Source: Escherichia coli (GTDB lineage: Bacteria > Pseudomonadota > Gammaproteobacteria > Enterobacterales > Enterobacteriaceae). Taken from it: a DNA stretch of 64,000 nt. The notes under the pieces are model-generated. The model did no database searches, was not told the DNA's origin, and saw only the letters and a program-made list of their open reading frames with translations. The translations under genes and the position numbers were made by a program. Positions 23,478-25,151 of this stretch are shown piece by piece. The DNA lies in assembly GCF_024502345.1 (NCBI RefSeq), contig NZ_JALDNN010000001.1, one strand, 5' to 3'. Numbering within the stretch: position 1 is the stretch's first letter; the number at the start of each line of letters is the position of its first letter.

Positions 23478-25151
23478 ATGAATATAAAGACGCTTAACGT
23501 CAGCCTTTTGTCTTTTTCTATTCTTACGGCATTGTTTCCGTTGAACGCGATGGCAACAAAATTAACCATAGAGCAGCGCCTTGAATTGCTTGAAAATGAA
23601 TTGTCGAAAAATAAACAAGAGCTGAAAGCAACACAGAATGAACTGGGAGTATATAAATCCAGACTTTCGACCTTACAAAAAAGTATTACGGAAAACAAAT
23701 ATAAATCAGCCTCGCTTGCTGAAATATCAGCGACATCTCCCGTCGCTGACAACATCAAAAATGAAAACGGTGAACAGAACTCGTCTGCCGCAGCGCATAC
23801 TATAAATGGATCGCAGCAAGTTGCTGTTATTGAAAGTAAAGGCGACAAAACCACTATCGAAAGCGTGACCCTGAAAGATATCAGTAAATATATAAAAGAT
23901 GATATTGGGTTCAGCTATCAGGGGTACTTTCGCTCAGGTTGGGGTACCGGTAATCACGGCTCACCACAAACTTATGCAGCGGGTTCTCTGGGACGTTTTG
24001 GTAACGAGATGAGTGGTTGGTTTGACCTGACCTTAAATCAGCGTGTCTATAATCAGGACGGTAAAACGGCAAATGCGGTCGTTACCTATGATGGCAACGT
24101 GGGTGAGCAGTATAACGATGCCTGGTTTGGTGACAGTGCCAATGAAAATATCATGCAGTTCAGTGATATTTATCTGACAACGCGAGGTTTTTTACCCTTC
24201 GCGCCAGAGGCAGACTTCTGGGTCGGCAAACATAAACTCCCGCAATATGAGATCCAGATGCTGGACTGGAAAACCTTAACCACGGATGTCGCCGCGGGTG
24301 TGGGGATTGAAAACTGGGCGCTTGGTGTAGGGCTGTTTGATATGTCCTTAAGCCGTGATGATGTCGATGTTTACTCTCGTGATTTTACGCGTACCAGCCA
24401 GATGAATACCAATTCTGTGGATGTTCGTTATCGCAATATCCCGTTATGGGATGATGCGACATTATCATTAATGGCTAAATATTCCGCACCTAATAAAACG
24501 GATCAACAACAAGATAATGAAAATGACGACAGCTATTTTGAAATGAAAGATAGCTGGATGCTGACTTCTATTTTACGGCAAAACCTGCAACGCGATACGT
24601 TTAATGAATTTACGTTACAGGTTGCCAATAATTCCTATGCCAGCAGTTTTGCCAGCTTCTCAGATGCCAGTAACACGATGGCGCACGGTCGCTATTACTA
24701 TGGTGACCATACCAATGGGATCGCCTGGCGTTTAATCTCTCAGGGCGAGATGTATCTCACTGACAATATTATTATGGCTAACGCGCTTGTCTATTCTCAC
24801 GGCGAAGATGTTTATAGTTATGAAAGTGGCGCTCATAGTGATTTTGACAGTATTCGCACCGTAATAAGACCGGCCTGGATCTGGAATACATGGAATCAGA
24901 CGGGGCTTGAATTAGGCTGGTTTAAGCAACAGAACAAAACACAGCAGGGTGTAACACTAAATGAATCGGCTTATAAAACGACACTCTGGCATGCATTGAA
25001 AGTGGGTGAAAGTATTTTAGGTTCACGACCAGAAATTCGCTTCTACGGGACGTATATCAATATTCTGGATAACGAATTATCGAATTTTAAGTTTAATGAG
25101 AACAGCAAAGACGAGTTTATGGCCGGCATCCAGGCGGAAGTCTGGTGGTAA
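23478..25151 (+). CDS. LamB/BglH-family carbohydrate porin with N-terminal coiled-coil extension (ScrY-like)
   Basis: 557-aa ORF: signal peptide, heptad-rich segment ([32 protein letters not shown]), aromatic-rich barrel region, C-terminal ...AEVWW like LamB ...EIWW. Confidence 0.7.

Follow-up and report, generated by a model that had tools for sequence, protein, structure and literature searches.

An intact LamB-family porin gene with an N-terminal coiled-coil extension, very probably bgcH of the accessory bgc PTS operon, in Escherichia coli

Positions 23478-25151 (plus strand) of the 64,000-nucleotide stretch of Escherichia coli DNA analyzed here (the window) hold an intact open reading frame of 557 amino acids, which starts with ATG, ends with TAA and is preceded by an AAGGA ribosome-binding site 6 nt upstream. 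RefSeq places a 'carbohydrate porin' at these very coordinates in an E. coli chromosome of 99.9% identity. The gene belongs to a six-gene island between eamA and marB that encodes a GntR regulator, the PTS components IIB, IIC and IIA, the porin and a GH1 phospho-β-glucosidase, for which we use the bgc names justified below. The regulator gene bgcR (20439-21137, minus strand) is divergent from the remaining genes; its product is of the GntR/HutC type, matches the Pfam families GntR and UTRA and is a GntR family regulator according to RefSeq. The three PTS components are all of the lactose/cellobiose family and are encoded on the plus strand by bgcE (IIB, 21336-21647; Pfam PTS_IIB, E 1e-18), bgcF (IIC, 21761-23083; Pfam PTS_EIIC, and NCBIfam TIGR00410 with 332.8 bits against a cut-off of 236) and bgcI (IIA, 23111-23422; Pfam PTS_IIA, E 2e-32), the start of the latter being taken from RefSeq at the 99.9% identical locus. 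The porin gene bgcH (23478-25151, plus strand; Pfam Sugarporin_N and LamB) follows, and bgcA closes the series with a GH1 6-phospho-β-glucosidase (25176-26615, plus strand, start per RefSeq; Pfam Glyco_hydro_1, E 3e-130; NCBIfam NF007154, 1035 bits against a cut-off of 624).

The block spans about 6.3 kb (approximately 20396-26670) from the eamA stop codon to the 3' end of marB and is a clean presence/absence polymorphism. Most of it is found in 2494 of the 5426 complete E. coli genomes (about 46%) and the remainder carry the empty site, while the porin gene, annotated as carbohydrate porin, is present in 2553 of the 5426. Neither flanking direct repeats nor mobility genes were seen at the edges of the block. 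Orthologues of the porin, likewise 557 amino acids long, occur in Citrobacter, Salmonella, Enterobacter and Kluyvera. We also considered that the gene might be a pseudogene or in decay and rejected this, given that the reading frame is intact and is full-length in 2504 of the 2553 carrier genomes (about 98%); the apparently constrained heptad positions across the orthologues, described below, equally oppose decay.

We consider it very probable, jointly with the mechanism proposed further on, that 23478-25151 is bgcH, which encodes the outer-membrane porin in the accessory bgc PTS operon for β-glucosides and cellobiose. This operon, composed of bgcR and bgcEFIHA, was reportedly described by Neelakanta, Sankar and Schnetz in 2009 for strain i484 and CFT073, and the abstract of that report is said to name the fifth gene bgcH and to describe it as a porin. 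The name bgcH for the gene in the window is partly taken from this abstract, which reportedly also names the IIC gene bgcF. To our knowledge BgcH was classed as a porin by homology, and our survey of the literature found no experiment on BgcH itself. The operon is identified as bgc because its gene content and regulator match, and because CFT073 has an island of six genes at the same marB/eamA site with a porin that is 98% identical (12 of 557 residues differ). PMC3585215 reports these genes and substrates for the bgc operon and presents BgcR as its positive regulator; there the labels F and I are swapped relative to the 2009 naming given above. Genes c1955-c1960 of CFT073 appear in PMC2831201 as a cluster of six genes for a cellobiose PTS, and from gene count and function we infer that this cluster and the island are the same. 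The gene, the operon and the domain architecture are already known from the literature and from Pfam, and the finding is real but ordinary.

The layout of the porin was derived from its sequence, from Pfam and from an AlphaFold2 (AF2) model of a single chain that was built on an alignment of 38 sequences and has a mean pLDDT of 84. All parts are encoded on the plus strand. The signal peptide (aa 1-26, 23478-23555; cleavage after A-M-A) was read from the sequence and can be aligned with those of BglH and ScrY. A pre-barrel extension of about 120 residues (aa 27-146) follows, in which a coiled-coil segment (aa 28-73, 23559-23696), a low-complexity linker of about 55 residues (aa 74-127, 23697-23858) and a conserved pre-barrel segment (aa 128-146, 23859-23915) can be told apart. 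The linker is modeled with pLDDT below 50 and has no secondary structure, and the pre-barrel segment includes a short amphipathic helix (aa 132-143, pLDDT 57-83). The remainder (aa 147-557, together with the stop codon 23916-25151) is an 18-strand LamB-type β-barrel. The regions differ in their identity to the orthologues: the pre-barrel segment (91%) and the barrel (89%) score highest, the coil (63%) is lower, and the linker (49%) is the fastest-evolving region of the mature protein.

The assignment of the barrel is supported by sequence and by fold. Pfam LamB (PF02264) covers aa 147-557 over all 378 of its profile positions (1-378) with an E-value of 1e-81 and 276.3 bits against a cut-off of 25.1, and the AF2 model places 18 long strands within aa 145-556 at pLDDT above 90. 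In a Foldseek search of the PDB, maltoporin (1MAL) and ScrY (1A0T) are the only close folds, with a target TM-score of 0.78. A phmmer search of the PDB with the single porin sequence gave zero matches at E-values up to 1, whereas the alignment profile retrieved LamB with an E-value of 1e-130 and ScrY with 3e-77. The initial annotation, which had read the open reading frame at 23478-25151 as a LamB-type barrel ending in AEVWW, is borne out on this point by Pfam, AF2 and Foldseek alike.

The segment behind the signal peptide has the features of a coiled coil by several criteria. Pfam Sugarporin_N (PF11471, 'maltoporin periplasmic N-terminal extension') matches aa 30-56 with 30.0 bits against a gathering threshold of 25.7 (E 6e-7); the corresponding score of BglH is 45.6 bits. 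When the occupancy of the a and d positions was scored, the best 28-residue window (aa 30-57) was equalled just twice when the protein was shuffled 300 times; ScrY and BglH behave alike, and LamB gives no signal. The a positions are filled by K28, L35, L42, L49, L56, L63 and I70, and the d positions by I31, L38, N45, T52, Y59, L66 and N73. Among 109 orthologues with 76-87% identity, hardly any variation is seen at a/d (mean entropy 0.38 bits) and at e/g (0.31 bits), whereas b, c and f are variable (1.30 bits; Mann-Whitney p 0.0013). Of the d residues, N45, T52 and Y59 show little or no change. Such conservation would be expected if the packing of a coiled coil is under functional constraint, and by general coiled-coil rules N45 and T52 at d would fit a trimer. 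In the AF2 model the segment forms one continuous helix (aa 31-73), most of which has a pLDDT of 85-92; the model rules out that this N-terminal helix is part of the barrel. The heptad-patterned segment that had been noticed earlier behind the signal peptide is therefore confirmed, with the peptide quoted at the time lying at aa 29-68, by the shuffles, Sugarporin_N, the conservation and AF2. Its length had been overestimated, as the run comprises about 45 residues (aa 28-73) instead of about 60. Together, Pfam, AF2 and Foldseek point to a ScrY-like N-terminal coil outside the barrel.

A characterized relative of BgcH is BglH (YieC), encoded by the bglGFBH PTS operon of E. coli K-12, with 53% identity along its whole length, signal peptide and coil included. 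Both proteins consist of a signal peptide, a Sugarporin_N coil, a poorly conserved linker, a TLKD.SK..KD.IGFSY motif and a LamB barrel, and both are encoded in β-glucoside PTS operons. BglH is nevertheless a paralogue at another locus, with a heptad run of about 4 compared to 6-7 in BgcH and with a shorter linker. Its PTS is also different, combining an EII of the glucose/β-glucoside type with the antiterminator BglG, whereas BgcH is accompanied by a PTS of the lactose/cellobiose type and a GntR regulator. BglH is referred to as an aryl-β-glucoside porin in PMC2646131, which cites Andersen et al. (1999).

A second relative, the sucrose porin ScrY of the scr regulon (PDB 1A0S, 1A0T and 1OH2), has an N-terminal coil of the same family in front of an 18-strand sugar channel, and its gene adjoins the sucrose PTS IIBC gene, making it as PTS-linked as bgcH. 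The identity to BgcH is just 23%, however, and the two extensions are built differently: that of ScrY measures about 70 amino acids compared to about 120 in BgcH, and its heptads reach almost to the barrel without the long disordered tether and the TLKD...IGF motif that are both present in BgcH. The solved ScrY chains correspond to a truncated form of 413 residues in which the extension is absent, and consequently there is no structure of any Sugarporin_N extension. The periplasmic coiled coil of ScrY is nonetheless given as trimeric in PMC6173795 (citing Dumas et al., 2000), and by analogy a periplasmic stalk, as the initial annotation had suggested, appears a reasonable reading for BgcH as well. 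The maltoporin LamB (PDB 1MAL and 1AF6) has the same barrel fold as BgcH and may share a good part of its aromatic slide and polar track, yet it has only 25% identity, lacks an N-terminal extension and is partnered by an ABC transporter with a periplasmic binding protein. In their design, DcaP and FapF resemble what we would expect of BgcH, each joining a trimeric barrel to a periplasmic, trimeric N-terminal coiled coil of the polar-layer type (PMC6173795); their barrel families are unrelated, their substrates are others and a sequence relationship to BgcH was not detected.

We also examined the gene contexts of further relatives in a small sample that was not systematically drawn. Three of them (P0143, P0144 and P0146) have a heptad-like N-terminal extension and adjoining PTS genes, two (P0145 and P0153) are extended in a similar way but lack PTS genes within 7 kb, and another two (P0149 and P0154) are PTS-linked and have no coil. 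The latter two, as PTS-linked members of the subfamily, keep the pre-barrel segment. Judged from these sequences, few as they are, an N-terminal extension is common, though not universal, among PTS-linked porins of the LamB family.

The residues lining the LamB channel could be mapped onto BgcH at 14 positions, the alignment of the loops being uncertain. Nine of the 14 are conserved or conservatively replaced (LamB Y6, R8, R33, Y41, E43, D111, D116, F227 and W420), and five are changed, likewise in BglH (W74, R82, R109, Y118, which corresponds to K265, and W358, which corresponds to L514). The position of LamB Tyr118 in the channel constriction is codon 265 of bgcH (nt 24270-24272). It encodes Lys in all 15 aligned sequences of the BglH/BgcH subfamily, BglH and BgcH themselves included, and corresponds to Asp in ScrY. 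The alignment makes Lys265 a candidate determinant of β-glucoside specificity, and altogether the channel residues would fit a sugar channel with a constriction unlike that of maltoporin. Since three channel residues differ from LamB (W74, Y118 to K265 and W358 to L514), the substrate range was deduced from the operon and not from the channel.

Based on the homologous porins, BgcH most likely forms a homotrimer of 18-strand barrels of the LamB/ScrY type, with one sugar-selective channel per barrel in which the aromatic slide and polar track would be largely retained. Going by the operon, cellobiose and the aryl-β-glucosides arbutin and salicin would cross the outer membrane via this porin. From the periplasm, the BgcE/F/I PTS permease would import the sugars with concomitant phosphorylation, and the phospho-β-glucosidase BgcA would then cleave them. 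By analogy with ScrY, residues 28-73 of the three subunits most likely come together in a single three-stranded, parallel coiled coil with a length of about 6.5 nm, which would hang in the periplasm from a flexible tether of about 55 residues. By sequence, the coil falls into one domain family with the extensions at the N-termini of BglH and ScrY. It may have a role in sugar passage or in trimer stabilization; the candidate roles, for ScrY as well, are a low-affinity sugar slide, stabilization of the trimer and a guide towards the inner membrane.

Because the tether is long and flexible in both BgcH and BglH, a rigid continuous slide is disfavored, and because ScrY has no counterpart of the disordered linker, the 'sugar slide' idea may not transfer to BgcH. 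The coil could instead be only a trimer-stabilizing or assembly element, as proposed for DcaP and FapF, and have no part in sugar passage. This agrees with the separation of the coil from the channel mouth by a disordered tether of about 55 residues, which speaks against a continuous slide, and with P0149 and P0154, which are PTS-linked yet have no coil. However, LamB trimers are stable without any extension, and a coil tethered so flexibly and at such length would hardly stiffen the barrel trimer. Results on ScrY stand against it as well: in work ascribed to Schülein et al. in 1995 and Dumas et al. in 2000, deletion of the ScrY extension reportedly alters sugar permeation, and the ScrY peptide is said to bind sucrose weakly. 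We find a purely stabilizing coil rather doubtful. It seems distinctly improbable that the tethered coil spans the periplasm and the peptidoglycan to contact PTS IIC, or anchors the porin to the cell wall, and in this way couples uptake at the outer and inner membranes where a periplasmic binding protein is absent. A coil of 6.5 nm on a tether of 54 residues could bridge much of the periplasm, coils that guide substrates to an inner-membrane component are mentioned as a suggestion in PMC6173795, and among the contexts examined the extension lies mostly beside PTS genes (BgcH, BglH, ScrY, P0143, P0144 and P0146) and is absent from the ABC-linked LamB. Yet this distribution comes from a small, non-systematic sample and has exceptions in both directions, as P0145 and P0153 are extended without PTS neighbors and P0149 and P0154 are PTS-linked without a coil.

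The idea that the coil sets BgcH apart from the other PTS-linked porins as a novel, atypical E. coli porin deserves hardly any credence. The extension is indeed longer than that of ScrY (about 120 against about 70 aa) and the heptad run exceeds that of BglH, but BglH combines the same two Pfam domains and is 53% identical throughout, 2553 of the 5426 complete E. coli genomes carry the gene and other genera have orthologues of it, and it is taken to be the bgcH named in 2009, of which CFT073 has a 98% identical copy. The architecture and identity of BglH and the CFT073 copy refute this idea. The earlier remark that such extensions are unusual for PTS-linked porins in E. coli is likewise not supported: BglH has the same Sugarporin_N and LamB domains in a PTS operon, and ScrY, P0143, P0144 and P0146 are PTS-linked too. 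Close identity to a characterized porin had been named as what would speak against the initial annotation, and in substance it was found, with 53% for BglH and 98% for the CFT073 copy of the presumed bgcH.

Within the preferred reading of BgcH as a trimeric β-glucoside porin with a tethered coil, we put forward one speculative proposal, which we regard as unlikely. The BglH/BgcH subfamily may carry a three-part module in the periplasm, unlike the continuous coil of ScrY, in which a trimeric coil, a tether of about 55 residues and a conserved amphipathic helix follow each other; the helix might serve as a gate, collar or docking site, and the tethered coil as a mobile element that captures sugars or binds a partner. 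We know of no description of the coil-tether-conserved-helix layout, or of such roles, for BglH or BgcH. The conserved pre-barrel helix, which survives in coil-less relatives, represents a modest lead and no discovery. With their coil-tether-helix layout and their location in genetically tractable E. coli operons, BgcH and BglH are convenient test cases for periplasmic coils.

Some further observations concern variants of the gene and its surroundings. In some strains, IS3 insertions split the porin gene. Several assemblies (P0016, P0017, P0019 and P0057) contain porin-glucosidase fusion ORFs of 630-749 aa that unite LamB, Sugarporin_N and GH1, and the 90% cluster of the porin includes entries named '6-phospho-beta-glucosidase'; stop-codon loss, frameshifts or clustering through fusions probably account for both. 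The sole Rfam match in the 64-kb window is the Hfq-binding sRNA STnc560 (17685-17898, plus strand; 281.9 bits), which is located in the mgtS/mgrR region beside dgcZ and has no relation to the porin.

A scan of 20300-27000 for promoter and terminator consensus sequences gave no excess over shuffles (17 versus 15.4 and 4 versus 5.6, respectively). When the bgcR-bgcE intergenic control region (21138-21335) was inspected by eye, putative look-alikes of HutC/GntR-type operators were seen, ATGTATAGCTAC near 21268 and GTCTGTTATATACCAG near 21309, together with a TGTGA half-site near 21252 that could be part of a CRP site. At the right end of the island, a GC-rich hairpin of 12 bp (26640-26667; centroid structure, -22.6 kcal/mol, z -4.2) separates bgcA from marB, which converge on it. 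It is followed by a T-run on neither strand and is probably a shared terminator of the two genes. In K-12, where eamA directly abuts marB, the empty site bears a different hairpin. Within the operon, an intercistronic hairpin of 11 bp (23426-23453, plus strand; -17.7 kcal/mol, z -2.8, with 1 of 200 shuffles folding as well) is positioned after the stop codon of bgcI and ahead of the ribosome-binding site of bgcH. No U-tract comes after it, and it could be an element of mRNA processing, stability or partial attenuation that sets the level of the porin relative to the PTS genes.
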